The position numbers and the translations under genes are program-made. A DNA stretch of 64,000 bases from Blasia pusilla (taxonomy: Eukaryota): contig CM114271.1 in NCBI GenBank assembly GCA_050084515.1, positions 13,392,001-13,456,000 on the forward strand. The letters run 5' to 3'. Below, in pieces: positions 1 through 64,000 of this stretch. The notes below the pieces were generated by a model. It saw only the letters and a list, made by a program, of their open reading frames with translations. It was not told where the DNA came from and ran no database searches. Positions within the stretch are counted from its first letter, which is position 1. Each line of letters begins with the position of its first letter.

Positions 1-73
1 ACTCAAGATAGTCCGCTGGCTCCAATGCCCTATCCACGATAGATCTTGGCCTATCGGCTACTCAGATGTGACA
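1..73 (-). repeat. 5' terminus (A repeat) of another copy of the DNMT-Gypsy family, running off the left edge of the window
   Basis: Reverse complement reads TGTCACATCTGAGTAGCCGATAGGCCAAGATCTATCGTGGATAGGGC..., near-identical to 4993- and 17003-. It is not preceded by a B repeat, so it is an A1 end. Confidence 0.85.
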
Positions 74-1829: not shown

Positions 1830-4800
1830 GGGGGTATACAAGAGTAGAGTGCCCCTCCCATTTGTTAATGGATTCTATTATGGATCCATGTCATCGATCC
1901 CACGTTGTGAGGCATGATGATCGACAGCCGTTGACTGTGGTCAACAAGATTGACATGCCATGGGCAGCCTTTCTCACATTTTTTAGTTTTCCCGCTTCCT
2001 ATGCATTCAAGGAGGCCAAGCTTGGCTTGTTTTGGGATGACCAGGTATAGCGGTTGGTGGAGCCCAATGTCGATGAGCGAGAGCTAGCGATGGGATTTCC
2101 CACATGAGTGACGGTAATATCGTCATTATCAGAGGCATCATGACAACGTGTCGTGAGTCAAGTGATGGACGTGAACTGCTTGGCATGGATTATCACCTTA
2201 GGAGTAGCTGAGCAACGTCATTTGAGGATGCAATAGATCATAACTGTTGCATTGGTGAGCCCCATGCCTACCAAGACGGTTGAGGCAGTGGCTAGGGGCG
2301 AGACCCGAGGAGATCAACACATGCACCATGGGTGATCGGGAGAGACACCCTTGGAATTCTTGGGATGTTTTGTAGGTACGTCGGGAAATGATAACCACAA
2401 CATCGAGGGTGGTTTAGGGTACTGCACATGGAGGAGATCAAATTTTGCAGTTGGTTGTAGGGGAGCAATCGAGTCATGTTGTCCAAGACGGGGTTGCACC
2501 ATAGCAACCACCGATACTCGCATCGGAGAATCCTACTGTAGTCACGATGGAGACTTGGGAGCCACATATGGGCCCTAAGTTGAAAGGAGGAGAGGGGCGT
2601 TGGATACATCAATTTCTTAGAAGTTATAGTAGTTGTTTTGCATTCAGCATGCATGATTTTATTGATTTGGGTACGCTGAAGGGTCTAGAGATCCGTATTG
2701 AGTTGTTGAGCGACACGTCGATCTTCCGACAACCCTACAGGTACAATGATATGGAGAGGGCTCTGATTTAGAGTAGAGCCAATATTGGGTTGGAATAGGA
2801 CTAGTGGAGATGTCGCATGGAGAGTATGCATCTAATACTATGAGTCCGTCATGCCTGCCAAGAAGGATGTGCATGGCAACTGGACGGATAGGCGGATGTG
2901 TGGAGATTACCGACCTATTAATTGGCAGATGAAGTACGATAGGTATGCCATGCCCACCCCTAAAGAGATCTTTGATGATATTGGGCTTGCGAAGATCTTT
3001 AGTTTGTTGGATCTTTGAGCCAGATACCATCAGTTGCTTATCAGATTTGAGAATAGGCAAAAGACGACATTTTGGGGCATCGATCCTTACGGGAAGGATT
3101 GCTTGTACCAATGGCCGTTCTTACCATTTGGGTTAAAGAACGCTCCGATTGAGTTTCAGAGGGTCATGGATAGGATCTTGGTAGGTCTAGATTTTTCTAG
3201 GTGTTATAGTGATGACATCGTAGTCTTTAGCGCCACGGTTGAGGAGCATGAGCGACATCTGTAGGAGGTGTTTTGACGATTGCAGTTACATGGGCTAAAG
3301 CTACATCCAGACAAGTGCAAGCTCTTCTACAATCAGATTGAGTACTTGGGTCATACCATATATCCATGTGGCCTTGGTGTGCAACAGACAAAGGTAGAGG
3401 CTATTTGATGCCCTACAGATGTGAGTCGAGTTTGTGCATTCATGGGATTGGCAAACTTCTATCGATGATACGTCAAGGGTTTCAGTTTGATTGTGAAGCC
3501 GCTAACTTGCTGACCAAGGTGGATCAAGAGTGGCACTGGGAGAGTGAGCAGGAGAGAGCATTTCAGTTGCTCAAGGAGAGGTTGACGTCTGCACCTATAT
3601 TGAGGAGACCGATCAGGGGGCCTCTGTTCCAGTTACATATCCATTAGAGCATGTTGGGGCTTGGAGCCGTGCTCACCCAACATGACGATGAGGGTAGAGA
3701 GTTTGTGGTGGCTTACGCAAGTCACTCAAACTACGTTGCGAAGGTGAATTATAGCTCATATGAGGGTGAGTGCTTGGTTGCAGTGTGGGCTGTCGCGTAT
3801 TTCAGGCGTTATTTATTCGGCAAACCCTTTACCATTATGACTGATCATCACCCACTTAAGTGGTTGATGGAGTTTGACAAGCCTACAGAGAAGCTTGCGA
3901 GGTCGGCTCTATTGTTGTAGGAGTATGATTTCTAGATAGTACATAGACCTCGGATACTCAACCAGGATGTAGATGGTTTGAGTTGTAACCCATGCCTGAG
4001 CCAGTGAGATATGTGACTAGAGCTTGATGGCATGGAGAGAGTGATGAGGAGTTGGTTCCAAGATGGCACGCGTCAGCCTATTTGCGGATGTTGGATATGG
4101 AGAGCCACATTTTTGAGACTTCGATGGCGAGGTCTAATGGAGATTCCTTAGATCTAGAGGCCGGTGAAGAGATGACATGTGGCCAAGATATTCAAGAGGA
4201 TGGAGTAGTCTTGGAGTAACTGCGTGCTCGCAACGTCGCGAGCACAATTGGTGCTAGAGAGTGGAATCGGATCCTACAATGAGCCAGATGGTTCTAATGG
4301 GAGGGGACACATATGTTGCAAGTTTGGGAGGATGGTAGAGTACGTGTAGTGCCTTATCCTTCATAGAGAGCATGTCTGGTGCGCCATGCCCACGAGGAGT
4401 AAGGTCATTTTGGAGTGAAGCGGACGTACAACTTGCTCCAGATACAGTATTGGTGGTGAGGTATGCAGGCTGATATTCAACAGTGTGTGATCGGGTGCAA
4501 ACATCGTTCAATCCTCTGACTCCACAATTTCATCCACTTCCGATCATGGATTTAGGTTATATATGGAGTTTGGATTTTGCAGGACCTTTACCTTTGACGG
4601 AGCGCCATAGTCGTTATGTGTTGGTGATGGTTCGACACTTCTTGAATTGGATAGAGTTGGTTACATTGCTTGACAAAACAAGTGAGGGAGTAGCGTATTC
4701 CTTCCTAGGTTGAATATTGAATCATTACGGCGCACCAACTCAGTTGTTGACAGACCACGACACAGAGTTTTGCGGGGAGTTTCAAGCCTTGTGTGATCAC

Positions 4801-4992
4801 GTGTTGATCGACCACCGCACCACTTCGCAAGAGCATCCTCAGGAAAATGGACTAAAGGAGAGGGTTGTGTAGACGGTGAAGAGAGGTTACGTAAGCATGG
4901 CTTGTAGAGAGGTCACCTAGGGGATTCGGACCTCCAGTTTCCGTGGTTGGCGATGGGATACAGATTCAACATGCAAGCCTCCTTAACGTCTT
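1830..4992 (+). pseudogene. Element A pol fragment: C-terminal methyltransferase part (TRD, motifs IX/X), RT, RNase H, N-terminal integrase
   Basis: EPNVDERELAMGF and VSQVMDVNCL (motifs IX/X), LPFGLKNAP..FQRVMD, CYSDDIVVF (RT), YSSYEGECL (RNase H), WSLDFAGPLP (integrase). Many stops and frameshifts. gag, protease and the MTase N-terminus are absent. Confidence 0.85.
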
Positions 4993-5472
4993 CGTCACAT
5001 CTGGGTAGCCGATAGGCCGAGATCTATCGTGGATAGGGCGTTGGAACCAGTGGACTATCTTGAATGTAACTTTGTCCCACTATGTCGGATGAGGTTGAAG
5101 ATAGGTCCATTGTGTCAGGAATGTTATTTCTGACAATTTTCATGTTGAGGTCTTTCACAGCGGGATGACTTGTTGACTAGGTCACCCGCCCCTGGTAACC
5201 TGTGCGTGCAGGTTACCAAGGGGAGGGCTATTTTTAGGGGAAGAGCCTTTTGGCTCTTCCCAACCCTATATAAGAGAGGAAGGTGGCTTTCCTAAGCCAT
5301 CTTTCTCATGTTGGGCCATTGGAGCACCTCTCTTGTATGTGTGTGAGATAGGACTAGGGTGCTAGCCTCCAGATTCCTTGATAGCATAGGGTGGACAAGG
5401 CTCAATATGCCAATGTAGATTGAGGAGTGGAGTTTTAGGCCGGGTGTACCGTTTTTACTACTCTTAATTTTT
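4993..5472 (+). repeat. Element B repeat A1 (480 bp)
   Basis: Aligns along its whole length with 17003-17483. Contains a TATATAA box near 5267. Confidence 0.92.
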
Positions 5473-6855
5473 ACATGAGAAAGATGTTAGGGGGCTGGTG
5501 GGAATTCGTTGTTTGTAGGTAGGCAAGCGAGTTGCCTTGGTCGGGAGCCCCTGGAGACGCGTGTGTTGCGGGTGTTGGTCATTTTTTTGTTCGGAAGGCC
5601 GTGGGCAAAATCGCTGTCCGTTTTTCATAGATTTCTTTGGTGCGGGTTGAAGGGGAACAACAGCTGAGTGTAGCGCACGGTGTGCAACAAGTGGCAGTGA
5701 GTGAATCAACGACGAGTGAGTGCCGCGTGTCGCAAAAGAGAGAGCTTTGTCTTGTAGTCGCCGGGGGGCTGTCAAGCAAAGGCGGCTTGGTAGCTATTTA
5801 GGTTACTTGTAGCGTTTTAGGTCATAGAGCTGTGTTAGGTAACTTGGATCCGCGGGGCTTCTAGGTACAAGCGTTGGACTTGAGCGTCTAAGGAAGGAAG
5901 AGAGAGGGGCCCGCATAGGGCCTCGTGCCCATACAGGATTGCGGCTCCATAGGGAGCCGCGCAGGTGTAGTTAAAGCAGGGCCGCAACCACATAGGGCTA
6001 CGTGCCCTCAACAGACCCCGTAGGCCCAAGGCCGCGGTAGAGAGGGGGTCGCGGGAGCTGAGGAGCTCTTAAGGTCGAGGAAGGAGGGGGTGGAAGGAGT
6101 CATTATGACTCCAAAGATGGAGGAAGGGCATGGGCAGGTGTGCCCACATAGGGCGCATGCCAAATGGGTAGAGACAGAGCCGGGAGCTAGGAGCGGGAGT
6201 GAAGGAGGAAAGAGGGGGCGTTTAGGGTCTCGGCCTCATAGGGCCGCGCGCCTAAGGGAGTAAAGAGAAGTAGTTCGGTAAGGGAGAGCACTTATGGCTC
6301 GGGATAAGAAGCTCTGAGAGAGGTTAGGATAAAGGCGGGGCTGAAAGGTGGTAGCCGGAGAGCAAGGTTGCGCGTGGCAGGGAGTTCGAGAAGTAGGGAG
6401 TAAGAGTCGGGTGAAGGTGGCGGAAGGTACTATCACCACATAGATAAGAGTGATGTGGTGACCAGGCTACCCGGTTAGGCAAGTTTGGATATGCTTACGT
6501 AGTTAGGAGAGCATACGTGGTCGATCGGGCTTCTACCAAGTTTTTCAGAGTTTAGATTTTCCGAACATTATTTTCGGAGGACTGGACTAACTGCCAGCAA
6601 GGTGGGTGAGCTACACCGACAGTTGACGACGGAGTGGTAGTGCTGGAGACACATGCACTGATGCCGACGGGTAGTCCGTATCTGTTGACGAGAGACTCAG
6701 GGTTGCTGTCAGACGGTGAGTCTGACAGGGTTGTCATCACGGCATTCTTCCAGGTTTCGGAAGAACGGGGTAGTGCAAGCACTAGTAGTGGTGGGACACG
6801 GAGTGGAGTGAGATACCGAGGGGTCACCAGTGAGAAGCTACCTCGACATCCATCC

Positions 6856-8753
6856 ATGGCTAGATCGTCATCACTAGACACTGGGTCTGGTGACGAGATC
6901 GCAGACGAAGGCAGTATCACTTGGCAGGAGATGGACAACATGGGCCATCGGGGCATGCGTCGTTTCTCCGGTGCAATGGGCACCATTGACTTAGATGATT
7001 TTATCCAGGAGTTCGACACGTGGTGCGACTTCCAGGAGATACGGACCCCGACACGGTTCAACCCTTTCATGGCATGGAAGGGGTTGTTTGAGCACTTGGA
7101 GGGTCCTCCGATGGATGATTACATGGAGTTTCGATCACTATATTCAGTAGAGATCGATGCTTGGAGGATGTATTGGGCTCCAGGGTATGTGTCCACTGGT
7201 GGTCGCAAGGCATATGATGGGATTGTGAGAGGAGAGAGACCCACACCATCAGCCCGGAGACTAGATGGAGAGGAGGGCAGTGAGACAGGCGATGTGGCAC
7301 AGATCTCTAGTGGTAGCGAGCCACCCAGCTTTAGCCCCAGTGGAGTTCTTCCGACAGTTGGGGAAGAGCTACCAAGGCATACACACCAACAAGCTGAAGA
7401 GTCTACAGGATATTCAGCGACGATCAGGTGAGAGTTTGAGAGAGGCATTCACGCGCATGAGGAGGCTGATCATTGCTACGTATGGAGTGACTGAGGCGCA
7501 GTCAGTCCAGTATTGGTATGGGGTTCTGGACTGAGAACTACGGAGGAGAGTCCGAGATGCGGTGCTAATTCACACAGCAAAGCCCACATTGAAGGTGATC
7601 TTTGAGTTTTTTGAGCGTATTGAGCTCAACATGAGTGAGGAGCAAGTAGTGACCGCTGGATTTTCTCGAGAGTCGACGGATCCACGAGCGACGGTGACCC
7701 CACAGGTGCCACAACGAGCACCAGTACCACAGGAGCGGGCCGGTGTGCCCAGAGAGCAGGTCGGGTACCGTGAGCCTATAAGGCAATGACCCATACCTAC
7801 ATATGTTGCCCAGTAGGCACCGATGTGGTCTTGTTGGACGTGTGGAGGGGCCCATAGGCAAAGAGATTGCCCACAGCATGGGAGAGGACCACGAGCGCCT
7901 CCGATTGCTCAAGAGCCACAGAGGAAGTCCCCACCACAACCCTAGTGTGACTATTGCCACAGATATGGTCACACTAGGGATAGATGTTTTGACCTTCGCC
8001 GAGAGGCACGTCCAGAGGTAGGCCAAGGGCCTGGGGGCGATCGTCTTGGAGGAGGTCGGGGAGTTCTTCCTGGACATGGTGGTAGAGGACCACCACCAGC
8101 CAAAGGAGATGGAGTCGGAGCACCAGAGTTGGCACTTCTCACGCGCATGGATCAGTTGGAGCAGAGGATTGCTGCCAGGACGATGATGCAGCTCAAGGAA
8201 GGCACAGAGCCGCGAGCAGCTAGTGTGGCTCCAACTTCTACCTCTTACCTTGACCCGGGTGAGGATCTTGCCAGTATGGGATTTATGTGTAGTGCAGCCT
8301 AGGTTGAGGCAGCTGCAGTGGTGACTCGGGGTGCTGCGAGAGGCACCGAGCCATCGAGAGGTGGAGTTGAGATTGACCTACTAGAGGGGATCAATGAGCG
8401 GCAGGCCAGGGTTCCACAGTCATTCACATTGTCGGCGGCACTACACACACTAGAGCGAGCAGTGGTGAAACGTGGAGTAGTGTTACTAGATAACCGAGCG
8501 GGAGTATTTTTCTTGGTTAGTCCAATGGGGACAGTATACCACCCGCAACGCGTCCTACTTGATTCGGGAGCGCAACCCTTGATGTTAGGGAAGGCGGCGT
8601 GTTTAGCGTTGGGGTTACGGAAGGCCGACATTGAGCCTTGTCCCTTCCAGATACAAACCTCGATTGGGGGCGTGTCACCCACGCAATATATGACTCGACA
8701 GGAGATAGTTGTCAGAGTCCAGCCAGAGCATGCGACGGATAGTGCGAGGTGCG
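6856..8753 (+). pseudogene. Element B gag plus aspartic protease (decayed)
   Basis: MARSSS...DLDDFIQEFDTWCD...; zinc knuckles CWTCGGAHRQRDC (~7832) and CDYCHRYGHTRDRC (~7947); RGG-rich stretch; protease active site VLLDSGAQ (~8550-8575). Confidence 0.85.
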
Positions 8754-11700
8754 GTAAGAGGAGAGGAAGAGAGGAAGAGAGGAGAGAGGAGAGAGGAAAC
8801 TACCTTCAACCGAAATAGATACTTTTTTTTGAAGAGAGTTTCCGTTGGGTTGAAGAGAGGAAACTTTTTGTGTGAATTTTTGCACTTTTTTGTTCATTTA
8901 TTAAACAATCCCACAATTTTTTTTTCCTCTTCCATATTTTGGCAACCCCTATGAGTCCGACGAGTTGCAAATTGCACAAAATTTACAAAACTGAAAAATC
9001 AGTGGAATCATAAGTGTGGAACCAATCACTTTTTCCATCCAAGGTCTGGAAAAAATCTATCATTTGCCCTGGGCTCAATAGAGTTCAAGCTCACAGTGAA
9101 GGTTGAGAAAAAAATAAAAGTACAATCTAAAACCTCATTTTGCATCCTCAAAGTGGTTTGTTTAAAATACTTGAACTTCTTTGAGGGGTGGGGTGGTTGG
9201 TGGATTCCTACTCCTACCTCCGACTCTCTTAAAACTACCAAACAACACATAGTACATGTGCTTACAAGGAAATACCTTTTGCCACTTGTCTCTCTTTGGA
9301 CAAAGTCATCACATGAACATGTGGGAAAGCAACAGATGTGCACCACATACACCCTGTGACACTTGAATTTCTGTGTTGTTCTGACCCAATACATCCTTCC
9401 TATTCCATTGCCACTCAAGACATCTTTCGTGGCGATGATCTCCATTTTGCCTCCCAAGCTGGTGCAATTCATTTTGCTCTCTCCACCATTGGCCTAGACA
9501 TTCTGTTTCTCTTCACCCCATTTCTAGACTCAAGCAGAAATAATGGATTGAGATCATCCACCTTCTCCGGGTACATGTTGACATCAATCTTGGGTTGAAT
9601 CGAAATCGAAGGTCTCTGTAATCGAACATGCTCGAACTTCCCCGTCTCTGAGTCGAAACCGACACTTGTAAGATTGTCCACTTCATCTTGAGTGCGATTC
9701 GTGTACTGCGGCGATGGGCCAAATCGTGGGGGTATTCGGGAGCTCCAATGGCAGCGGATAAGACTTCGAAAGCGCAAGATTCATTTGGGCAGAAGAAGTA
9801 CTTCAATTGATCCCCGGTCCTCGTGAAACGATCAAAGGTTTTGAGTCCCCAAAACCCAGGCAGTGGTCGTCCAGTCCTTGTACAGTTCTTATTTAGGAAA
9901 GTGCCGCATGCTCTCCTAATGCCATCTGATCCTTCCTTGCACGTGGGTCCACATCCTGGGTCGCTCCGAGATATATGCCACCGTTTTAGGTTGCAATCCA
10001 CTTCCATTACCGGAATCCCATATTGTTGAACCACCCCAGTGAGAGGATGTTGCAAACTTCCAGCAACGGAGGGCTTTTGAAATAAAACATTCACTGATTT
10101 TGGAGAAGTAACTCCATCACGGATTTGGGACGGGTTCGGGGTCCCCGAATACCTGGGCGGTGTAATTTCCTCATCCAAATCAATCACCGGATTTGTTCCT
10201 CGATGCTGCCTCTTCACCTGCTTGAAGTCAAGATACTTATCTGGTCTCCACGAGTCTCGTTCGGACTGCTCTACCACCATCTGTATGGGACGTCTTGAAA
10301 CCCGCCCACGAATATCCCCACCTATGTGTACGTCTTGCTCGAGTGGAGTTCCAGCTACGCACCGGTTGAAGGCTTCGACATACAATTTTTCATCACCAGA
10401 TCTCACAGCCGCCCTAACATAGAGCTCGTAGATCGACGACCCTTTTCCTTTTGTTATGCCTCTTGTGAGGAAGATATGGGATGCTGCAGACTGTAGCATT
10501 GCTCTTGCCTGGTCTTGTTGGCATGCCTCCACAAGTGAAATTCGTTGGCATGCTTGTGACGACCTCCAAGAGGAATGAACACTTTCTGCTCCACTTGTGT
10601 TGGGGTAGAGGGCATTTTCATGAACGTTCAATCCCTGCAACGACGGCAATGTTAGAAGGGAACGAAAATAACCCAGGAGTAAAAGAAATAAGCGACCTGT
10701 CGGAACCAGACGGGTTGCAGGCCCGAGGCATCCCATTAACGACTCTGCGACCCGTCGGGTCCCGACGTGTTGTAACCCTAAACCCACCTACCGCAACCCG
10801 TCGGAACCCGACGGGTTGCAAGGCCGAGGCATCCCATGAACGACTCTGTGACCCGTCGGGTCCCGACGGGTTGCACACTCGAGACGACACCAAACATCTG
10901 GATGCAACCCGTCGGTTTCCGTCGGGTTGCACACTCGGGCAACCCGTCGCATCCGACAGCTTGCTTGGTTTCTTGGGTTTGAAATCCATATAATTCCCAC
11001 GCTTCTCACCCTGAGCTACAACTTTACAAACAATTCTCAGCGTGAGCTTGACAAGACAAAATGGTGAACTCACCTGCCGCATGAAGTTTCCCCATTGTCT
11101 CATACGTACAGTCCACCAACTCAACCAAGAGCACAACTCTTTGTACTTCCCCTTAATCGCATGCTTCCTCCACCACCCATGAAGTTCTTCCTGGCAGTCC
11201 ATGGCCTGCTTCAAGGTTTTTCTGCCCTTGCAACGTTGGAGTAGAGTGACATGCTCTGTCCTCTTATTCTCCTTGATGCAAGATTTGGTGTACCGGGTCA
11301 CAGACTGTTGCTAATGGAAAGCATCCGACCTTTCCCTCTCCGGTTGAACCTCTCCACCCCAGAACACTTCCCGGATAGGAATCCACCCAGGTTGTGCATT
11401 GTCCGCCATGAACCCATAAATTTCCGGAGGTGGCCTTTTGTTTTCCTTCATCACCTCCAATAAGAGTAACAAAGACACATCTTCAACCGCCAACGTCTTC
11501 GCCTTTACTTCACACACAAATATAGTTTTGAGTCCCTTCTCCACATGGTCATAAACGTGAGCACCCATCGTCAACCATCCATTCAGCACTCTGTAGCAAA
11601 TATCAAAGCTGACCCAAATCCCGTAAAGATCTTCCCCTTCCCTCATTCTATCTATAAGATCGAGGCCACTCGAGGGACCTGTGGTTGACATTTTGAAGAC

Positions 11701-11946
11701 ATAGGCCCTGGATCCCTCGCCTCCTTGGCCCATGAACTGCCATCTCTGAATGAATGGAAATCTGGAGTTGGCCTTGATTCTGGCGATGGCATCCATTTCG
11801 GCCGTCTTTCCATCGAACTCAGATATCGACGCAACAAATTCCGGAAGCATTCAGGATCAGCGAGAAATGCGAGATTTTCCCAGAGTTGTTTCTCCTCAAC
11901 CGCCGTGATCTCGCCCTGTCCAGGGATTCCAAGCAATTGTTCCTAT
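8754..11946 (-). mobile_element. 5'-truncated Mutator-like (MULE) transposase gene fragment with SWIM zinc finger, inserted in the element B protease
   Basis: WVSFDICYRV, YGFMADNA, AFH and PNTSGAESVHSSW (MULE DDE-like motifs). CFPTCSCDDF..PCKH (SWIM) at ~9260-9335. GT-AG intron 11073-10635 joins MRQ|GLNV in frame. Flanked by GGTGCG at 8748-8753 and 11947-11952. No TIRs. Confidence 0.7.
10692..10964. repeat. Array of six ~27-bp palindromic units inside the MULE intron
   Basis: The unit at 10793-10819 is GCAACCCGTCGG-AAC-CCGACGGGTTGC (perfect 12-bp stem). Five degenerate copies surround it. Confidence 0.85.
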
Positions 11947-12475
11947 GGTGCGCACACGTGTGATTACGACACCAGCTGAGCCGTACCATGCGTTGGTGGG
12001 GAGAACACTATTATATCCCCTAGGTTTCATCCTTGACTTCTGGGAGGAGACCGTTGCTTATCGGCCAAGATGGCGGTCAAGTGACGGCCGGATGAGTTAG
12101 TTACCCATGCAGTTTGCGGAACGAGGTGGTCGATCACGAGGCGAGTCTGTGACCACGTTGGCAGCTTTCACAGGTAGTGTTAGTTGGCCAGGAGAGTTGT
12201 TGGAGGGGAACGCACATGCGGAGGATGTCCCAGTAGCAGATAGTCCCACGGAGAGACAGGCCATGGTGGGTGTCTCTTCCCATGTTGGCGAGACCTCTTC
12301 ACCATTGTGGGGTACGACTTGAGAGCTACAGAGGAGTGCCGACGACCTCGTGAGGCATGCGTGGAGTCATGCTTTTATCCCGGAGCAGCGAGAGTCACGT
12401 GGCAATTGGACTTTTGGAGTGGAGACGTTGATCCCACTAGATACCACACTCGCTGTGTGGCAGTGCCCAGAGGAG

Positions 12476-13430
12476 GGTGTTAGGGTGTTAGATCTCTTCA
12501 GAGGGATTAGCACCAGATTAGCTGCAGTATTGCACGTGGGCATACGGGTGCATCAATACCTTTATGTGGAGAGAGATGAGACCGCGCGGCGAGTATCATT
12601 ACGTTACGTGGCGAGATTGGTCTAGAGGTATCGTGAGTTGTTGCCGGTATTTGCAGTACGGGGATTTCAGCATACACTACCCGCCGACATCTCTTTGGTG
12701 GGGGTGCAGGATCTAGATAGAGTTGGCACCATTCATTTGGTGATTGATGGATGGCCATGTCTAGGTCATTCATGAACTGGCCGAGGATTTGGATTGCAGG
12801 ATCCGAGGTCAGGGATGTTTTGGGAGATGCTGCAAGTAGTACGATACTTGCAGGAGAGTCAGACATGTTCTCCAGCATTTTGGAGAATGTGCCGTTGTTG
12901 GGAGACACTCGTGCTTGTGTGATGACAAGTGTGCATTAGGTGAGGTCCTGGTTGGGACCTGATGTGTTGCTAGATGCAGCGAGAGTTGGGTCACGTGCCC
13001 ATTGTCCATGACTGTGGTGGAAGAACTTGATACCATCAGAGGTACTGAGTCGAGCATACGATGGAGTCTAGAGAGCACCACATCTCATAGTGGATGTTAT
13101 TTTGAGCTTAGGGCGTCGATCTCAGGTGGTGACGCGGGATGATGGACCACCGTTGGCAATGGCCAATAGGGTGGGGGAGTTGAGGGCAGCCTTACCTACG
13201 TTGGTGAGCTTCCCAGCATCCCATGCCTTTCGTCAGGGAGGGTCAGGCATGATTTGGGATGAGGTGACTGGAGCATTGGAGGAGCCTACCGCAGATGAGC
13301 GCGAGCACGCCATGGGGTTTGCTACCCGTACTACGGCGGTGCCAGGGATGATTGAGGCATCCCGGAGATAGGTGTTGGGGCAGACAATGGACCTCAACTG
13401 TCTCACATGAATAGTTAGCCTAGGTATGGC
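12476..13430 (+). pseudogene. DNMT3-like cytosine-C5 DNA methyltransferase domain inside element B pol
   Basis: Motif I VRVLDLFRGIST (~12479), II YLYVERD, IV LVIDGWPC (GWPC 12749-12760), VI LENV (~12880), VIII GSRAHCP*LWW (decayed RxR), IX EPTADEREHAMGF (~13282), X VLGQTMD (~13372), in canonical order. Contains stops. Confidence 0.88.
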
Positions 13431-13724
13431 TGAGCAGAGACGGATGCAAGTGACATCCATGCCGTCACGTCCACGAGTTAGACCATTGCCTACAGGGTCT
13501 GTACAGGCATTGGTTGGGGCCGAGACGAGGAGAGATAGGCACCCATGGACTTCTTGGGACGTCGTTCGAGCAGAGAGTGCAAAGACGGCCAGAGTAGAAT
13601 ATGTTCATTTTTTGGATGTTGAGCATAGTGTGGGAGGTCAGAGTGGAGTGGCTATTGCGGAGGTGGCTAGGATTGCTACATAGCAACCAAAGCCGGAGGT
13701 TGCGTCCTCTCCAAGTGAGGTCAC

Positions 13725-16700
13725 GATGGAGACTTGGGAGCCTGTGATAGGTCTCAAGTTGGTAGGAGGAGAGGACAGCGAGTTCATAGGTTTCTGAGAG
13801 GTCATGTTAGTTGTTTTGCCTTCAGTATGAGAGACTTGAGTACGCTGAAGGGTCCCGGGATACGGATTGAGTTGGCTAGTGATACGCTGATCTTTCGTCG
13901 ATCCTACAGGTATTTTGATATGGAGCGAGCCTTGATTCAGAGCAGGAGTCATGACTTGTTGGAGGCAGGTTTTCTGGAGTTATCACATGGGGAGTATGCA
14001 TCTGCCACAGTCATGTTGGCGAAGAAGGATATGTATGGCAATTGGACGGATAGGCCGATAGGTGGAGATTACAGTCCTATCAACCGACAGACCACATCAG
14101 ATCGGTACGCCATGCCTACTTCCGAGGAGATCTTTGATGCGGTAGGGCATGCAAAGATCTTCAGTACTTTAGATCTCCGTGCTCGCTATCATCAGCTTCC
14201 TATCAGGTTGGAGGACAGGGAGAAGACAACATTCTGGGGGATAGATCGGCTCGGGAGAGATTGCTTGTATTAGTGGCGGTTCTTACCATTTGGGTTAAAG
14301 AACGCGCCTGTAGAGTTTCAGAGAGTGATGGATAGGATTCTGGCTGGCTTGGAGTTTGTACAATGCTACATAGATGATATTCTTATCTTCAGTTCCACAG
14401 TTGAGGAGCATGAATAATACCTGTAGGAGGTGTTTCGGAGATTGCAGTAACATGGACTGAAGTTACATCTAGGCAAGTGCAGATTCTTTCAGGAGCAGAT
14501 TGAGTATTTGGGACACACCATATACCCAAGTGGGTTAGGCGTTCAGCAGACGAAGGTAGAGGCTATTGCGTAGATTCCAGGCCCTACAGATGTGAGTCGA
14601 GTCCAAGCATTTCTTGGACTGGCAAACTTCTATCAACGGTATATCAAGGGTTTTAGTGCGATCGCAAAGTCTTTGACCTTGTTGACGAGACTTGATCAGT
14701 TTTGGTGGTGGGGAGATGATCAGGAGCGAGCATTTCAGGAGCTCAAGGATAGGTTGATGTCCTCACCTATTTTACAAAGACCAATTAGGGGTCGCCCATT
14801 CCAATTACATACGGATTGGAGCATATTGGGTCTAGAAGCAGTGCTTACTCAAAGGGATGACAAGGAGAGGGAGTTCGTTGTGGCTTACGCGAGCTGATCG
14901 AACAACATTGCAGAGGCAAAGTACAGATCCTACGAGGGAGAGTGCTTGGTTGTAGTGTGGACTGTGGCACATTTTAGGTGCTATTTATTCGGCAACCCTT
15001 TCATACTTATGACTGATCATCAGCCGTTGAGGTGGTTGATGGAGTCCGACAAGCTAACGGGAAAGCTTGCCATGTGGGCTCTATTTCTACAGGAGTATGA
15101 GTTTGAGATGGTTCATAGGCCAAGCCGGCTGAACCACGATGCGGATGGGTTGAGTCGTAACCCATCTCCGAGTGAGAGAGACGACAGAGGAGCTCACTGG
15201 CACGGAGAAAGTGATGAGGAGATGGTGCCCGGTTGGCATGCATCTGCCTATCTTTGTTGGTTGACTATGGCAGGTCAGCCACAGATGATGACTCCAGTGG
15301 TGGAGCTCGATGATGAGTCTTTGGATCCGGAGGTCAGTGAGGAGGCGACATGTGGTCGTGATATCCATGACGACGTGGAGGTTGTGGAGTTGTTGCGCAC
15401 TGGCGTCATAACGAGCACAGTGAGTGCTAGGGAGCAGGATCGGATCCTACAGAGAGCCAAGAGGTTCAGATGGGAAGGGAATCACATTTTGCGGGTATGG
15501 GGAGATGGTAGGATACGAGTAGTATCTCATCTTTCCCAGCAAGCACGTGTAGTGCAACATACCCATGAGCAGTTGGGACGTTTTGGAGTTAAGCGTAGTT
15601 ACAGCTTACTCCAGGTTTAGTATTGGTGACGCGGCATGCATACTGGGGTACAACAGTTTGTGGCCATATGTATGGTATGTGATAGAGTGCGAACATCCTT
15701 CAATGCTCCCACTCTACAGTTACATCCTTTGCCGATTATGGGTTTAGGTTATCGGTGGAGTTTAGACTTTGCGGGACCTTTGCCATTGACGAGGCGTCAT
15801 CATAGGTACGTGTTGGTCATGGTGGAGCATTTCTCCAAGTGGATAGAGTTGGTGGCACTACCGAACAAGGCGAGCGAGGGAACAGCTTATGCATTTCTAG
15901 ATCGTGTGCTTAGTGACTTTGGTGCACCGGCGGAGGTGTTGACTGACCAGGGTACCGAGTTCAGGCCTTGTGTCATCAGGCGTTGATAGAACCCCGCACC
16001 ACGTCCAGAGATCATCCTAAGGAGGATGGGTTGGCGGAGAGAGTGGTACAGATGGTGAAGAGAGGATTGCACAAGTATGGCTTGCAGCGGGGACAGTTGA
16101 GGGAGTGGGACCTACAATTGCCATGGTTGGCTATGGATTATCGCTTTAGTCGGCAGGCATCCTTGGCGTCATTTTCACCGTACTTTTTGCTCTTTGGGAG
16201 AGAGCCAGATTTACCTGCAGCGATTCAATGTGACATGGCAGAGGTGTTAGATCTTGATGATCCAGATGTGTGGGTACAAGCATGTTCTCAAAGGGCGGAG
16301 GTTTTTCGTAGAGTTATGCCTATGGCCTTTGAGAACTTAGCTATTGCTCAGCATAGAGATACATTGAGGTACGCGACCACTCGTGGAGGAAGCTATCGTT
16401 CAAGGATTAGGAGGTTTCATCTTGGAGATAACATGTATTTACAGCAGGCATTACCCACGACGCTAGATGTCACTGCACGGCACACAATCCTACGTGTGCG
16501 CAAGGTATTATCGACCGGAGTCCTCATGTTGGAGGGATGGGATGGTATAGTTTGGAAGGATCATGTGCGCAATTGTGCGCCATGTCATCTTCCAAAGTGG
16601 ACGGGACAATGGATCCGAGCTTGGCAGTGGTACCTGCAGCTTGAGGTGTATGTTGTGCAGATCTGCGAGGGGTGTAGCCATCATGTTGGTATGTGATGGT

Positions 16701-16787
16701 TGTTCTCGAGGATGGCATATGTCATGTCTGACCCCCCCTCTTGATGTGGTTCCCACGAGACGATGGATGTGTCCTAGATGTGTATAG
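13725..16787 (+). pseudogene. Element B RT, RNase H, integrase and C-terminal PHD finger
   Basis: IFSTLDLRARYHQL, CYIDDILIFS, FQLHTDWS, TDHQPL, HHCC zinc domain, WSLDFAGP, TDQGTEF, DGLAER; PHD CMLC..MLVCDGCSRGWHMSCLTPPL..PTRRWMCPRC (~16650-16782). Confidence 0.93.
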
Positions 16788-16852
16788 GTAGTAGGTCATG
16801 TGAGAGAGATGTGATATTGTCTATCTGGAGTTCGGGGGATCCAACTGCCAGC

Positions 16853-16862
16853 TAGGGGGGCG
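16853..16862 (+). promoter_or_regulatory. Polypurine tract upstream of B1 in element B
   Basis: CCAGCTAGGGGGGCG. The same motif lies before B1 in C (20211-20226, minus) and in A (40656-40670). Confidence 0.75.
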
Positions 16863-17621
16863 GTTGTGTGATCTTCATGTATATGTATGAGTTGATTTTT
16901 TTAAATGTGTGGATCGACCCGTGTGTGGGGAAGATTGGTGTTTTGTGGTGTAGATATGAACATCAATGTATGTTGTGTAGCGATATGTATGCGCACGACA
17001 GCTGTCACATCTGGGTAGCCGATAGGCCGAGATCTATCGTGGATAGGGCGTCGGAGCCTGCGGACTATCTTGAGTGTAACTTTGTCCCAGTGTGTCGTAT
17101 GAGGTTAAAGATAGGTCCATTGTGTCACGAACATTGTTTCTGGCAACTTTCATATTGAGGTCTTTCACAACCGGGTGACTTGTTGACCAGGTCACCCGCC
17201 CCTGGTAACCCGTGCGTGTAGGTTACCAAGGGGAGGGCTATTTTTAGGGGAAGAGCCTTTTGGCTCTTCCCCAACCCTATATAAGAGAGGAAGATGGTTT
17301 TCCTAAGCCATCTTTCTCATGTTGGGTCGTTGGAGCACCTCTCTTGTATGTGTGTGAGATAGGACTAGGGTGCTAGCGTCCGGATTCCTTGATAGCACAC
17401 GGTGGACGAGGCTCGATATGCCGATGTAGATTGAGGAGTGGAGTTTTAGGCCGGGTGTGCTGTTTTTACTACTCTTTATTTTTGTTGTGTGATCTCCATG
17501 TATATGTATGAGTTGATTTTTGTACATGTGTGGATCGACCTGTGTGTGGGAAAGATCGGTGTTGTGTGGTGTAGATGTGACCAGCGATGTATGTTGTGTA
17601 GTGATATGTATGCGCACGACA
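16863..17621 (+). repeat. Element B 3' block: B1 (16863-17000) - GC - A2 (17003-17483) - B2 (17484-17621)
   Basis: B1 and B2 are 138-bp direct repeats, both ending ATGCGCACGACA. A2 matches A1. Confidence 0.92.
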
Positions 17622-18337
17622 TCTTTCTCACCATACTTGTTGCTTTAAGGCCGAGAGCCAGATTTACCTACGGCCATTCGTCGAGATGTTGTTGAGGTAT
17701 TCAACCTTGATGACCCTAATTTATGGATGCGAGCATGTTCTCAAAGGGCTGAGTTGTTTCGGAGAGTGATGCCCATGGCGTTTGAGAACTTGGCCATTAC
17801 GCAACATGGGAATACGTTGAGGTATGAGACTATTCAGGGAGGTGGTTATCGACCGACTCTTCGGAGGTTTGATCAGGGAGACTATGTCTACTTGTAGCAG
17901 ACGACACCCACGATGTTGGATGTGAGCGAGGGGGTACGTGAGATTTTGCCATGTGGTGTTCTCTTATTGGAGGAATGAAATGGTATGGTTTGGAAGGACC
18001 ATGTGCATCACTCTGCTTCATATCACCTTCCTAACATTGACGGTACAATTGATGCAAGCTTAGCAGTAGTTCTTGCAGGCTTGCGATGTATCTTGTGTGG
18101 TTTCACCCGTGGTGCAGCCACTTTGCTAGTCTGTGATGGATGTTTGAGAGGATGGCATATGGTATGGTTTGGAAGGACCATATGCATCACTTTGCTTCAT
18201 ATCACCTTCCTAACATTATCGGTACAATTGATGCAAGCTTAGCAACAGTTCTTGCACGCTTGCGATGTATCTTGTGTGGTTTCGTCCGTGGTGTAGCCAC
18301 TAAGCTAGTCTGTGATGGCATGTTTGACTCCACCTCT
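17622..18337 (+). pseudogene. Element A integrase C-terminus and PHD N-part, with a local tandem duplication
   Basis: REPDLP, MPMAFENLAI, VWKDHV, CILCG..LLVCDGCLRGWH. ~17980-18160 is repeated at ~18160-18320. Confidence 0.85.
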
Positions 18338-18453
18338 TATTGAAGATTAAGTTACAGTCAAGCTCATGAGATATCTGAACTACTACATTTGGTACTCACA
18401 CGAAGTAGGGGAGCTTAATATTGGTTAGTCAGTTAAGCGCGATTATCTTAACT

Positions 18454-19476
18454 TGTCGTGCGCCTACTCTCCTTGAACGTTAATCTTGTTTGTTGCGGAA
18501 GCGTGCGTTTAGTAGGTCATGCTCTCAATGCTGATCTGCATCCAAACACGCACTTTGGTTAGTCGGGTCTTGGATCAATCAACGGGATTACATCTCGTTC
18601 TCATCTCTCATCAAGCTCAACCTTCCTAGTTTCGCGGTTTCCAACACGGGCAAATCTCGGAAGACTTGGAACAGACTTTCTGGTCGGTTCAAGAACCTGA
18701 AACGGCGTTTCGTGCCTAGCGGTTCCAACTGTCCAATGGACATCCAATGAGTTTCTCATCAAGACTCACACAAAGTGAATCTCGGGTTGGAATCTAAGTG
18801 TGGCGTACAAAGTCCACTCCCTTGGATCAGGTTTGGGTTTCGAGTTCCCACGCCAAACTCCCGTTCCATCCTGTGCCTGTAAAACGCCGTTTGGCGCCCA
18901 AAGTGGGGATTTATTTCCCGAGACATCTCGGAGAGACTCCTCCCTTACTAGTACTTTTGGGGATCTCCAAGGGCCCCCTACATTTAGGGAAAGACACCCG
19001 GGCCTCTCCAATTGGCCCTCAACCCGATTGCTCTCTCAATTGTTTTCGGCCAATATCTCAGCCATTACTTATGCGTTTGCTCAGATCTTTAGTGCGTCGG
19101 AAGCGTCTTAAGATCAACTTTCCAACGCGCCCTTATTTGTCCCAAATGCATCTTGGAGCTCAACGTTATGGTCCTAAACACAATCAGATTCTCCCAAACG
19201 CTAGTCGTGTTCCAAACTGGTTCTCACCTCTTTGGCAACCAACCTCCCAAGACTCAACTCATCTCAAGTCTTGGCTCACGTTTGGTCTAGGTTTCCTGAT
19301 CACGACCACTAACGCATGAAACGCACAACTCTGTTTCGCGTTTCGTCTCTTAGACTTTTCCAAGAGACTTTTCCAAACGCCTCTCCAAAGTGCAAACTTC
19401 GCAGCGTGAGTTCCCTTGAGTTCTGATGTTTCACTTGACACCTATTTGGTGTTGTTTGGTTATGAGGGTCGCGACA
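18454..19476 (-). mobile_element. Solo LTR of the element D chromovirus family
   Basis: TGTCG...CGACA, 1023 bp, aligns with 24807-25823 and 31162-32191. TSD TAACT at 18449-18453 and 19477-19481. Confidence 0.93.
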
Positions 19477-19640: not shown

Positions 19641-20212
19641 TGCCTTGCGAATCCACATCGTCATACAACATACATCGCTGACATACCATACTCACATACA
19701 TACATAACATAGACGAGAGCATACACAAACATAAGTGTACCATAACTGAAATCCTACTGTCATAAACACGTATAGAATCACATACAATCAAGCCAAACCC
19801 ACTCCACGATGGGAGAATCCAGGTCGAAACTTGCGGGAACCACCATAGCTAAGAGCTCTACTCACTACCAAGGCTAACTCCCAACGCAACAGGCTCAACT
19901 CAAAGAACTAATTGTTCTTTGAGTGCACTCCATACTATATCCTCCAACCTAAGAGCGGGCCCTACTGGAAAAGTCACCCTCAACTGAGTAACCCCCAACC
20001 CTTTGTATGAAACCGCATCTCTACCTAGAAACTACGGCCCTACATAAGGTATGGCCTCTACTAGCACACTATACTCTATGACATAATCCGTATGGTCATG
20101 ACAGCCGTCGTACCCATCCACATCGTCATACAACATATATCGCTGACATACCATACTCACATACATACATAACATAGACGAGAGCATACACAAACACAAG
20201 TGTATCACAACT
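19641..20212 (-). repeat. Element C 3' block: B1 (20212-20106) - GC - A2 (20103-19784) - ~36-nt spacer - B2 (19747-19641)
   Basis: B1 and B2 are 107-bp direct repeats. A2 (320 bp) matches A1 at 35208-34889. The PPT lies immediately upstream of B1. Confidence 0.9.
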
Positions 20213-20393: not shown

Positions 20394-23300
20394 TCAAGGA
20401 CAAACCCACCTTCCAGTAGGAACAACATCCATACGTGGAATCAAACACATCATGTGCCAACCCCTAGAACATCGATCACACACCAACATACGGGCTGCGT
20501 TACTAGCAGACCCACACAACATATACCTCAAGCTAGCACGTATCATGGCTAAGCTTGGGTCAACAGTACCATCCACATTTGGAAGATGACATGGCGCACA
20601 ATTACGCACATGGTCCTTCCAAACAACTCCATCACGACCCTCCAACATGAGAACTCCAGAAGCTAACACCTCTTGCACTCGTAAAATAGTGCGGCCTGCC
20701 GTCACATCCAACGTTGTCGGTGCAATCTGCTGAAAATAGACATAGTCCCCCACATGGAACCTACGAATCGATGGTCGATAACCTCCACCCCGAATGGTTG
20801 CATACCGCAACGTATCCCTGTGTTGAGCAATGGCAAGGTTCTCAAAGGCTATTGGCATAACTATCCGGAATAGCTCTGCCCGTTGAGAACACACTCTCAT
20901 CCACATCTTTGGGTCATCAAGGTTCACCACCTCACTAGACTCCCAACGAATTGTTGCTGGCAAGTCTGGATCTCGACCGTATAACAGAAAATAAGGTGAG
21001 AAGGAAACCAAGGATGATTGGCGACTGAACCTATACCCCATGGCTAACCATGGCAACTGAATATCCCAGTCTCCAAGATGCCCCTTCTGTAGGCCATACT
21101 TGCGCAATGCCCTCTTCACCGTCTGAACCACACGCTTAGCCAAACCATCCGCCTTTGGATGATCTCGAGACGTGGTCTGATGATCAATCAACGGCTTGTC
21201 ACACAAGATCTGAAACTCACCCTGAAACTTTGTACCCTGGTCGGTCAGCACTTCAACTGGTGCACCAAAATGACTAAGCACTCTATCAAGAAACGCATAC
21301 GCCGTTCCCTCACTTGCCTTGTCAGGTAATGCCACCAACTCAATCCACTTGGAGAAGTGCTCCACCATCACCAACACATATCGATAATGTCGTACACTCA
21401 ACGGTAACGGTCCCGCAAAGTCCACACTCCAAAGGTAACCGAACCCCATAATAGGCAAGGGGTGTAACTGTGGTGTAGGGGCATTGAATGATGCCCTCAC
21501 TTGGTCACAAACCATACAACGTGACACCAACTGTTGTACCTGAGTATGCATGCCACGCCACCAATACTGACCAAGGAGTAAGCTATACGTACGCTTTACC
21601 CCAAAATGTCCCAACTCCTCATGGGCATGTTGCACAATGCGCTCTCTCTGAGCCAAATGCGGCACTACTCGTACTCTACCATCCTTCCACACACGGAGAA
21701 TATGTGTTCCCTCCAATCGATGCCTCTTAGCACGTTGAAGAACACAGTCTCGTTCCTTGGCACTCACTATGCCTGGCACCCTACTGGTCCGTAGGAACTC
21801 CAACACCAACGCATCATCATGAATATCACACTGATCCGTACCACCATCTCCAACCTTAGGATCTGAAGGCTGGCCATCTATCCTCTGACTAGAGTAAGAT
21901 GTCATGTGGTCCTCCATACTAGAGTCCACCCCTAACCAACATAAAAAGGCGGATGCATGCCAACCTCGCACCATCTACTCATCAACCTTGCCATGCCATC
22001 TAGCCCCAGTTGCATCCTCTTGGCTAGTACATGGGTTCCTACTCAACCCATCAGCATCAAGGTTGGCAACTCCAGGTCTATGTACCACCTGGAAGTCATA
22101 CTCTTGTAAGATAAGAGCCCATAGTGCAAGCGTCCCTGTAAGCTTGTCAGACTCCATTAACCACTTGAGCGGTTGGTGATCAGTAATAAGGGTAAACTGT
22201 GTGCCAAACAAGTAACACCTAAAGTGTGCCACAACCCACACTACTGCCAAGCACTCTCCCTCATATGAACTGTAGCGTGACTCCGATGCATTATTCGAAC
22301 GACTTGCATAGGCTACCACAAACTCCATATGCTCATCATCATGTTTTGTCAACACCGCTCCAAGTCCCAACCTACTCCAATCAATGTGTAACTGAAATGG
22401 GTGCCCTCTGATAGGTCTCCTCAAGATAGGCGCAGCCACCAACTAGGCCTTGAGCTCCACAAAAGCTCTCTCCTGATCATCTCCCCAATGCCACTTTGAT
22501 CTGATTTCAGAAATTGGTTCAAAGGCTTTGCCATAGCACTAAATCCCTTCACATACCTCCGATAGTAGTTCGCCAATCCCATGAATGCCCAAACTCTACT
22601 CACATCTACTGGACGTGGAATAAGTGCAATAGCCTCCATCTTTGCTTGCTGAACTCCCAAACCACATGGATAGATCACATGATCCAAGTACTCAACATCC
22701 TCATGGAAGAACTTACACTTTCCTCGATGCAAACGTAGACCATGAGCTTTCAACCACTCAAACACAATCTGCAGATGTATCTGATGCTCCTCCACCGTGT
22801 TACTCAACACCAAGATATCATCAATGTAACACCGAACAAAATCCAACCCTGCTAGGATCCTGTCCATCACTCTCTGAAACTCGGCAAGTGCATTCTTCAA
22901 CCCAAAGGGTAAGAATTTCCACTGGTACAAACAATCCTTGCCATGAGAGTTGACACACCAAAATGTTGTCTTGGCCTTGTCACTTTCCCGAATCGGCAAT
23001 TGATGGTATTATGCCCGAAGATCCAAAGTACAGAAAATCTTTGCTTGTCCCACCACATCAAAGATCTCCTCAGGTGTAGGCATGGCAAACCTATCGGCCT
23101 TGGTTTGCCGATTGATAGGATGGTAATCTCCACACATCCGCCTATCCGTGCAGTTGCCATGCATATCCTTTCTAGCAGGCATGAGAGTGGCCGATGCATA
23201 CTCTCCATGCGACAACTCCACTAATCCAGCCTCCAAAAGGTCCAACGTCCTACTGTGAATCAGGTCCCTCTCCATATCATTATATAGGTAGGGACGATGA

Positions 23301-23465
23301 AAGATTGGCATATCACTAGCCAAATCAATCCGTATACCGGGTCCAACCAAAGCACCCAACTCCTTCATTCTAAAGGCAAAACAACTCCTATAAGCACGTA
23401 GGAACTGTGTCAAGCGTCGTTTCTAACCTCCCGTAAGCTTGGGCCCAAGTAATGGCTCCCAAGTC
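20394..23465 (-). pseudogene. Element C RT, RNase H, integrase and PHD finger
   Basis: ORFs 23009-23413, 22421-22999 (CYIDDILV), 21975-22442 (RNase H) and 20394-21974 (526 aa: HHCC, DFAGP, TDQG, DGLAKR; MLCG..MLVCDRCSRGWHMMCLIP..WVCP). Confidence 0.93.
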
Positions 23466-32191: not shown

Positions 32192-32196
32192 CAACT

Positions 32197-63203: not shown

Positions 63204-64000
<797 letters not shown>

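Follow-up and report, generated by a model that had tools for sequence, protein, structure and literature searches.

Repeat layout of the elements in the window

The 64,000-nt window analysed here (contig CM114271.1 of Blasia pusilla, positions 13,392,001 to 13,456,000 of the forward strand) contains Ty3/Gypsy retrotransposons that have a DNA methyltransferase (DNMT)-like region and split terminal repeats. In place of a full long terminal repeat (LTR) at each end, these elements have a repeat A at the 5' end and, at the 3' end, a block made of a repeat B, a second copy of A and a second copy of B. Together with the polypurine tract (PPT) that adjoins the first B, the order is A1...PPT-B1-A2-B2. 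It is found in element B (4993-17621, plus strand), in element C (19641-35208, minus strand) and in the 3' block of element A (Table 1). Repeats were located by self-BLAST of the window and by probe searches with A and B sequences. A sequence-only reading of the window had proposed the layout; for elements B and C it is confirmed by self-BLAST, exact 4-bp target site duplications (TSDs) and paralogous empty sites.

The two A copies of element B (4994-5472 and 17004-17483) are 92.3% identical over 480 nt; the two B copies (16863-17000 and 17484-17621) are 91.3% identical over 138 nt. The limits of this element can be fixed independently of the repeats because it interrupts an older related element, Z, and the tetranucleotide TCTT is duplicated at the joints. 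Self-BLAST aligns Z 2541-4956 with element B 13720-16136 and Z 17622-18161 with element B 16169-16721, at about 70% identity. The homology of Z to the integrase region of element B ends at 4956-4968 and restarts at 17622; when one TCTT is removed, Z is collinear with element B 16120-16190 without an indel.

In element C, the A copies (34889-35213 and 19784-20108) share 95.7% identity over 325 nt and the B copies (20116-20212 and 19651-19747) 95.9% over 97 nt. Element C interrupts the later part of Z and is flanked by GCCG (CGGC in element orientation) at 19637-19640 and 35209-35212. This tetranucleotide is single in the uninterrupted paralogous sequence in element A (40391-40404); element C therefore starts at 35208 and not at 35213. 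The similarity of Z to element A ends at 35247, 34 nt beyond element C. TSDs thus flank A1 and B2 in both elements, as the sequence-only reading had expected. The same reading had placed a 36-nt gap between A2 and B2 of element C; these bases are really the true 3' end of A, which A1 of element C has lost together with the primer-binding site (PBS).

Element A has the 3' block claimed for it, with B1 (40695-40797) and B2 (41339-41444) 90.6% identical and A2 between them. Probes also bear out the three lone A ends (from 73 towards 1, near 60070 and at 63205), none of which has an adjoining B. Within the window, B-type sequence is confined to 3' blocks, so that B does not qualify as an independent repeat. 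Within each element, the A pair and the B pair have diverged to the same degree (92/91% in element B, 96/96% in element C). Ordinary LTR elements in the same window serve as a control and are recovered with the canonical layout by the same procedure. Full LTRs at both ends, TSDs at A1/A2 and B as an independent repeat were looked for in the split-repeat elements, and none was found.

Table 1. Features of the split-repeat elements and of their neighbours, in window coordinates
Feature	Position	Strand	Basis or remark
A-type 5' end TGTCACATC.. of a further element running off the window	1..73	-	no adjoining B
Older related element Z (reverse transcriptase (RT)-RNase H (RH)-integrase (IN) part)	2541..4992, resumes 17622	+	about 71% identical to element B 13720-16136
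TSD TCTT, left copy	4989..4992		joint read
A1 of element B	4993..5472	+	starts CGTCAC (A2: TGTCAC)
TATATAAG in A1 of element B	5267-5274	+	sequence reading
Predicted transcript start CATCTTTCTCATGT in A1 of element B	5298-5311	+	sequence reading
Predicted self-primer binding site ACATGAGAAAGATG of element B, directly adjoining the end of A1	5473..5486	+	exact complement of 5298-5311
gag (CCHC knuckle near 7946) and protease (PR; LLDSGAQ) of element B, degenerate	6610..8750	+	motif reading in translations of open reading frames (ORFs)
Foreign insertion of about 3.5 kb in element B, between PR and DNMT	8750..12300 (limits approximate)	-	GC skew flips, ORFs
Degenerate DNMT-like region of element B	12323..13700	+	12485-12910 69% identical to DNMT-like region of element C
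RT, RH and IN of element B, with stops and frameshifts	13719..16696	+	RT_RNaseH, RT_RNaseH_2, rve (Pfam)
PPT AGCTAGGGGGGCG of element B, directly adjoining B1	16850..16862	+	same motif before B1 in elements C and A and in relatives
B1 of element B, ends ..CACGACA	16863..17000	+	self-BLAST, probes
Dinucleotide GC between B1 and A2 of element B	17001..17002	+	GACA-GC-TGTC is a perfect 10-bp palindrome
A2 of element B	17003..17483	+	self-BLAST, probes
B2 of element B, ends ..CACGACA	17484..17621	+	first base is the nucleotide after the PPT in B1
TSD TCTT, right copy; Z goes on from here	17622..17625		joint read
Solo LTR of the ordinary Ty3/gypsy family, inside Z	18454..19476	+	TSD TAACT 18449-18453 and 19477-19481; empty site 40235-40245
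B2 of element C, 3' end ..AAGGCA at 19641	19641..19747	-	self-BLAST, probes
A2 of element C, starts TGTCAT at 20103	19748..20103	-	3'-terminal 36 nt missing from A1
B1 of element C (20212 to 20106) and GC (20105-20104)	20104..20212	-	PPT AATTAGGGGGGCG immediately upstream
DNMT-like region, RT, RH and IN with C-terminal PHD finger of element C	20394..24670	-	RVT_1, RT_RNaseH, Integrase_H2C2, rve, PHD
Ordinary Ty3/gypsy LTR retrotransposon nested in element C	24807..32191	-	two full 1-kb LTRs 96% identical, TSD CAACT
PR, gag and 5' leader of element C	32175..34888	-	translations; two CCHC knuckles in ORF 33021-33455
A1 of element C, starts TGTCAT at 35208	34889..35208	-	TSD GCCG 35209-35212 and 19637-19640
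3' block of element A: B1 40695-40796, AA, A2 40799-41338, B2 41339-41443	40695..41443	+	self-BLAST, probes
Diverged A-type 5' end (TATCACG..)	60070..60730	+	no adjoining B
A-type 5' end, 78% identical to A2 of element A	63205..63654	+	(GA)n run after it; no adjoining B

Encoded proteins

An integrase alignment was used as query to retrieve 80 metagenome loci (numbered with the prefix L) as relatives. ORFs of the window and of the relatives were scanned with Pfam, and the Pol of L023 and window ORF 24008-24670 were compared with PDB sequences. On the minus strand, element C encodes, in order, gag, PR, a DNMT-like region, RT, RH and an integrase with an HHCC motif, a DDE core and a PHD finger; its integrase ORF runs for 526 aa with no stop. 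Element B has the same gene order and is more decayed.

The Ty3/Gypsy coding capacity and the DDE integrase named by the sequence-only reading are both upheld. RVT_1, RT_RNaseH, Integrase_H2C2 and rve occur in that order in element C and in the relatives L023, L075 and L078. The Pol of L023 finds its best PDB matches in the Ty3 Gag-Pol structure 7q5b (E 4.4e-98) and the Ty3 RT structure 4ol8 (E 8e-75). No tyrosine recombinase (YR; Phage_integrase) is found in any ORF scanned, including those of near-intact L023, L075 and L078; its absence had also been noted before. The gag/protease stretch of element B (6610-8750) yields nothing significant in Pfam and that of element C (32175-34888) no match.

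ORFs 24008-24670 and 23510-24007 of element C can be read, by their motifs, as carrying DNMT motifs I, IV and VI. PF00145 is present in 35 of 38 database homologues of ORF 24008-24670, several of which are Marchantia polyproteins that also contain RVT_1/RNase H. In near-intact L023, ORF1 combines an aspartyl protease with PF00145 (51 bits, cut-off 22) and ORF2 is RT-RH-IN-PHD. A single in-frame stop divides the gag-PR-DNMT ORF1 from the RT-RH-IN-PHD ORF2 in L023 (5082-5086) and L026 (4660-4664); it may be no mutation but a site of read-through.

The integrase of this lineage (20394-21974, minus strand, in element C) is closed by a PHD finger. The integrase-PHD ORF matches proteins of Klebsormidium, Marchantia, Calypogeia, Riccia, Sphagnum and Haematococcus, and the IN-PHD pairing recurs in these matches from chlorophytes to bryophytes. 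Klebsormidium proteins with rve and PHD are 48-51% identical to this ORF. In chromoviruses, a chromodomain is found at the integrase end. A search of a survey of plant LTR elements (PMC6317226) finds no mention of PHD.

Long and short copies among the relatives

The 3' end can be classified in 40 of the 80 metagenome loci, which were sorted into distinct loci by their 3' flank. The other 40 were not counted, either because they end before the 3' block or because the repeats of their subfamily cannot be aligned. Three metagenome contigs hold complete long elements (L003, L062 and L065), all with the order A1...PPT-B1-NN-A2|B2. There are 12 distinct long loci (L002, L003, L011, L020, L065, L040, L047, L049, L059, L062, L070 and L072); L030/L031 are likewise long, and L079 has arisen by deletion but still has the A|B joint. 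The recurrence of the layout in diverged subfamilies thus holds for the window elements and for their metagenome relatives.

A second, short form is as frequent. In 16 loci (L001, L006, L008, L014, L019, L021, L022, L034, L042, L043, L044, L051, L060, L063, L066 and L068) the element stops at the end of B, right after PPT-B, and has neither A2 nor B2. The long layout is therefore not universal: it is present in 12-14 long loci, but of the roughly 30 distinct loci among the relatives, 16 have the form A...B without A2-B2. Having no 3' R, the short forms should be unable to replicate. They have unique flanks and TSDs, which argues that they are real.

Ten complete copies are available for counting TSDs (the window elements B and C, L003, L065, L062, L001, L006, L034, L014 and L068). 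A 4-bp TSD flanking the start of A and the end of B is exact in seven of them: elements B and C, two long relatives (L003, AAGG/AAGG; L065, AATC/AATC) and three of the five short copies with both ends visible (L001, TACA; L006, TGTT; L034, ACTA). Three of four bases agree in two further copies, one long (L062, GCAT/ACAT) and one short (L014, GGTT/TGTT), and there is no TSD in the short copy L068.

Neither B upstream of A nor B directly after A is seen at any of 18 5' ends (13 in metagenome loci and five in the window); accordingly, there is no canonical B-A 5' LTR and no A|B-A...B permutation among them. The 3' block is prone to deletion, as is evident from internal deletions in two loci. In L072/L073 (2479-2552), A2 is cut down to 74 nt in L072; in L079 (3321-3592), PPT-B1 and half of A2 are lost.

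Signals at the repeat edges and at the internal joint

An exact complement of the bases right after A1 is present inside A. The sequences that pair in this way vary from one subfamily to the next, which indicates that the pairing is kept by covariation. The complement is 17 nt long in L003 (position 164 of 339), 15 nt in L062 (165 of 307), 14 nt in element B (306 of 480), 12 nt in L006 and L014, 9-10 nt in L065, L033 and L034, and at most 8 nt in L001, L017, L032 and L068. The 12 5' ends tested, with 300 shuffles each, thus divide into five with at least 12 nt, three with 9-10 nt and four with at most 8 nt. Values of at least 12 nt are reached by 0-1 of 300 shuffles; the 14 nt of element B are reached by none of 300.

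In element B, L062, L006 and L014, the internal partner is preceded by a TATA box at a distance of 31-32 nt. In the predicted fold of the leader RNA, the 5' end is paired with the PBS in both the minimum free energy and the centroid structure in three of three cases, including element B. The complement inside A and the spacing of the TATA box are most likely a Tf1-type self-priming signature, with the transcript start predicted inside A. Such a start, together with the primer site, would explain the exact 3' edge of A. A tRNA-type PBS was also considered; the bases after A1 show no TGG... complement of a tRNA 3' end, and this candidate was replaced by self-priming. In element B, the last two bases of B2 and the 3' flank (CATCTTTCTCA, 17621-17632) are identical to the first 11 predicted transcript bases (5298-5308). 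This 11-nt identity is absent in L003 and L062 and is probably due to chance.

A conserved predicted PPT (AGCTAGGGGGGCG and variants; AGGGGGG) adjoins the first base of B1 in all subfamilies and so fixes the 5' edge of B. The A2|B2 joint brings together the last base before the primer site and the first base after the PPT. It is precise in element B and in 10 of 13 long relatives examined, and aberrant in L002, L062 and L072.

The outer ends of the elements, TGTCAY... and ...CACGACA, are inverted repeats of each other. Both meet at the internal B1|A2 joint, two bases apart, in the palindrome ..ACGACA-NN-TGTCAY.., where NN is mostly GC and otherwise a transition derivative of GC. This palindrome is conserved although the rest of A and B cannot be aligned between subfamilies. 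Of 49 loci scanned, 26 have it at a distance of about 100-175 nt downstream of the PPT; the distant relatives L023, L026, L039, L058 and L075 likewise have it 100-150 nt downstream.

Proposed mechanism and alternative explanations

These features are probably best explained by self-primed Ty3/Gypsy-DNMT elements with an LTR of the form B-GC-A, in which integration takes place at an internal palindrome and yields a permuted provirus. A would comprise the proximal promoter, R and U5, and B the distal U3. An RNA that begins at the predicted transcript start in A1 and extends to a poly(A) site past the corresponding position in A2 would carry the PBS, the coding region, the PPT, B, GC and the promoter part of A. 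This transcript would prime its own minus strand through the PBS after A1, as in Tf1, and self-primed reverse transcription would restore an ordinary LTR, B-GC-A. The integrase would then act on the palindrome inside the LTR rather than on the tips of the cDNA, producing CA-3' ends and a 4-bp staggered cut in the target. The resulting provirus would be the circular permutation A-PBS-internal-PPT-B-GC-A|B. In such a provirus A1 alone would suffice as promoter, B1-GC-A2 would pass the information of the whole LTR into the RNA, and B2 would provide the right-hand integrase end.

The joining of the end of A to the start of B may occur by blunt joining or circularisation of the cDNA, or by an end-to-end template jump; the cut would follow at the palindrome on the PBS side. 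Standard strong-stop transfer schemes, for transcripts ending in A2 or in B2, were also worked through on paper, and none gives A...B-A-B unless a joining step is added. Short A...B copies could arise by deletion between B1 and B2 or by direct integration of the piece of canonical cDNA that lies between the palindromes. The earlier interpretation is supported in part, but not its suggestion that a Gypsy lineage has converged on split-repeat replication: the signals are those of ordinary, self-primed PBS/PPT-type reverse transcription with integration at an internal palindrome, and not of a DIRS-like cycle.

Several points weigh against this explanation. A standard PBS/PPT cycle gives B-A...B-A, and A...B-A-B could be derived from it only with a hypothetical extra joining step. 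Random cutting of a two-LTR circle predicts A|B-A...B and A...B-A-B in equal numbers, and the former is found at none of the 18 5' ends; random opening of such a circle was rejected as the sole route on this ground. Four of the 12 5' ends have no clear primer complementarity, although these are old and two of them have imprecise BLAST limits. The transcript start, the poly(A) site and the cDNA ends are predictions from the sequence. It is possible that some short forms reflect collapse of B1-A2-B2 to B in short-read contigs. As for the methyltransferase, the DNMT-like ORFs of the window itself have no Pfam match (they are too decayed) and ORF 24008-24670 has no match among PDB sequences; the identity of these ORFs consequently rests on their homologues.

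One alternative explanation holds that the elements are DIRS/PAT/Ngaro-type YR elements, or are served by a YR in trans, with the integrase a mere passenger. The order A1...B1-A2-B2 is indeed that of PAT, Ngaro and TOC1 and, in passages of PMC5890265 and PMC7192593, of SymbioDIRS-Dnmt3, and a methyltransferase is present here as in many DIRS elements. However, nine of the ten complete copies have 4-bp TSDs (seven exact, two with three of four bases) and the ends are TG..CA. PR, an HHCC-DDE integrase and a Ty3-like RT/RH are present, the integrase ORF of element C is open over 526 aa, and Phage_integrase is missing from the ORFs scanned, L023, L075 and L078 among them; a YR origin is hardly credible. 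Still less credible is that the layout goes back to a single rearrangement of ordinary LTR elements, to an artefact of nested insertions or to misassembly. The window is crowded with nested insertions, which would favour such an accident, but two complete elements and one 3' block in it have the same order, palindrome and outer TSDs, and so do 12-14 independent loci from at least three subfamilies and other assemblies. In addition, A and B are equally diverged within each element, and a figure legend in PMC5890265 reports the layout independently for Klebsormidium.

The remaining two explanations concern the route by which the provirus is made. Integration from a closed two-LTR circle, in which the A|B joint is the circle junction and integrase opens one palindrome, fits the A2|B2 joint, which runs exactly from U5 end to U3 start as in a blunt-ligated circle. 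A-PBS...PPT-B-GC-A|B is such a circle opened at the PBS-side palindrome, and a palindrome with a 2-bp spacer would give 3'-recessed CA ends on both sides. Against this, the second, identical palindrome would give A|B-GC-A-PBS...PPT-B, whose absence from all 18 5' ends is very improbable if the choice is equal; this route is considered unlikely. The circle-junction model of integration has been abandoned for retroviruses; if the circle route were true, these elements would be a working example of it. Somewhat better placed, but still improbable on balance, is the possibility that the short A...B form is the normal product. Integrase would nick the palindromes of both LTRs in a canonical cDNA, in a way that recalls the release of phage Mu from its flanks, and the long form would need cDNA extension or circularisation; the long layout would then be a replication-competent minority and not the rule. 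Short loci outnumber long ones among the relatives (16 against 12-14), and an exact 4-bp TSD is present in three of the five short copies with both ends visible. Short copies are no older than long ones: median terminal branch lengths are 0.049 (n=11) and 0.050 (n=5), and the three shortest branches belong to short forms, but the samples are small. In 12 pairs of loci with the same flank, two of which are 3-5% diverged, both members always have the same form, so that no locus is seen in both the long and the short state. Aberrant A2|B2 joints in three of 13 long copies (L002, L062 and L072) would be expected if the joint is remade in each cycle. On the other hand, all three visible 3' ends in the window are long, and a lineage whose default product is sterile would bear a cost. 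B1 and B2, each 100-175 bp long, are directly repeated at a distance of just 300-500 bp, and deletion between them would give an identical product with the TSD kept; other deletions do occur in this block (L079, L072).

Relation to known elements

The closest known system is KnitGypsy-Dnmt3 of Klebsormidium nitens, where the Pol of a Gypsy LTR element contains Dnmt3-type domains (de Mendoza et al. 2018, Nat Commun 9:1341, PMC5890265). According to the legend of Fig. 4c in that paper, KnitGypsy-Dnmt3 has a DIRS-like repeat structure with Gypsy domains; the legend of Fig. 1e defines the DIRS structure as A-coding region-B-A-B. The basic layout is therefore already in print for Klebsormidium, in these legends, although the sequence-only reading knew of no earlier description. 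Both systems combine this repeat order with Gypsy domains and have a C5 DNMT inserted in a Gypsy Pol, identified here to the level of PF00145. They differ in host lineage, as the nearest named relatives of the window elements are liverwort and moss proteins. A 2026 preprint (10.64898/2026.05.21.726589) mentions, in one passage, 'streptophytes (Gypsy-DNMT3)'. By their sequences, the window elements would belong to the Gypsy-DNMT3 kind of the green lineage that was first seen in Klebsormidium.

TSDs, a PBS or PPT, end sequences, a junction palindrome and short forms are all absent from the passages on KnitGypsy-Dnmt3 in PMC5890265. Full-text literature searches returned no other descriptions of Gypsy elements with split direct repeats. 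The predicted self-primer site, the repeat edges defined by PPT and PBS, the proposed palindromic integrase site, the 4-bp TSDs and the frequent short forms are new, and are in none of the papers found.

PAT, Ngaro and TOC1 resemble the elements described here, as far as the sources consulted go, in their A1...B1-A2-B2 split direct repeats, in an internal B1|A2 joint where the sequence of the joined ends recurs, in an often present methyltransferase and in an RT/RH related to that of Ty3/Gypsy. They differ in having a YR, no PR and a mostly Dam-like methyltransferase, and YR elements are described as making no TSD (PMC4157794); the present elements have a DDE integrase, PR, a C5 DNMT, 4-bp TSDs and TG..CA ends. 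Of the features of the DIRS order they thus share the split repeats, but neither the YR nor TSD-less integration.

Self-priming is known from Tf1/Sushi and Tcn1, as summarised in Neumann et al. 2019 (PMC6317226). In these elements, as in those described here (from the predicted start), the PBS can pair with the 5'-terminal bases of the RNA of the element itself and not with a tRNA. Tf1/sushi and Tcn1 have two complete LTRs and a chromodomain, whereas permuted repeats, a PHD finger and DNMT are found here. Canonical Ty3/gypsy elements such as the one at 24807-32191 share gag-PR-RT-RH-IN, the PPT, TG..CA ends and short TSDs with the DNMT elements. They have full identical LTRs at both ends and, in the window example, a 5-bp TSD; in the DNMT elements, A alone forms the 5' end and B-A-B the 3' end, and the TSDs have 4 bp. 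The Pol order, the DDE integrase with its TSDs and TG...CA ends, and the positions of the predicted PBS and PPT are all those of Ty3/Gypsy; only the two full LTRs are lacking.

Other features of the window and of distant relatives

The foreign insertion in element B (8750-12300) has minus-strand ORFs of 424, 230 and 179 aa; the ORFs of this insertion have no Pfam match. Palindromic tandem repeats of about 55 nt, with units like GCAACCCGTCGGAACCCGACGGGTTGC, are found in it at 10692-10954. The ordinary Ty3/gypsy family nested in element C encodes gag, RT, RH and IN, and its LTRs have the ends TGTCG...CGACA, similar to the outermost bases of the DNMT elements. The A copy at 63205 is directly followed by a long (GA)n run (63655-63760). 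Three short tandem duplications or arrays are present elsewhere, at 38628-39037, 52331-52934 and 17980-18327.

Two distant relatives with 45-46% integrase identity, L075 (1368-11405) and L078 (3-11835), have long intact ORFs of 1163 and 2182 aa and of 2083 and 1906 aa, respectively. In both, RNase H and integrase are separated by a spacer of about 680 aa, which contains a G-patch in L078. Neither has a DNMT match, and large N-terminal parts of both have no Pfam match. No direct repeats are found within their contigs; in L075, the PPT and palindrome lie only 18 nt from the contig end.

Implications for the element family

LTR finders assume two identical terminal repeats. They will consequently set the limits of the elements described here wrongly, at A1..A2, so that B2 and the TSD are left out, and will overlook the short A...B copies altogether. 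The family appears to be common in liverwort and moss genomes, judging from many matches in Marchantia, Calypogeia and Sphagnum.

The combination of ordinary-looking reverse transcription signals with the proposed integration at an internal palindrome separates the definition of the repeat edges, by PBS and PPT, from recognition by the integrase. The regeneration of split-repeat ends thereby becomes testable in a system with a DDE integrase and TSD footprints. More tentatively, and with the odds somewhat against it, a widespread green-lineage clade of Ty3/Gypsy elements may have moved its integrase sites from the LTR tips to an internal palindrome; the integrase would act there as an endonuclease on a longer, circular or end-joined cDNA, and every provirus would be permuted. 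If this is true, split direct repeats would not depend on tyrosine recombinases. The elements would then offer a natural case of circle- or concatemer-type junction integration, and a tractable model for the regeneration of termini in elements of the DIRS/PAT/Ngaro type, with TSDs as footprints.

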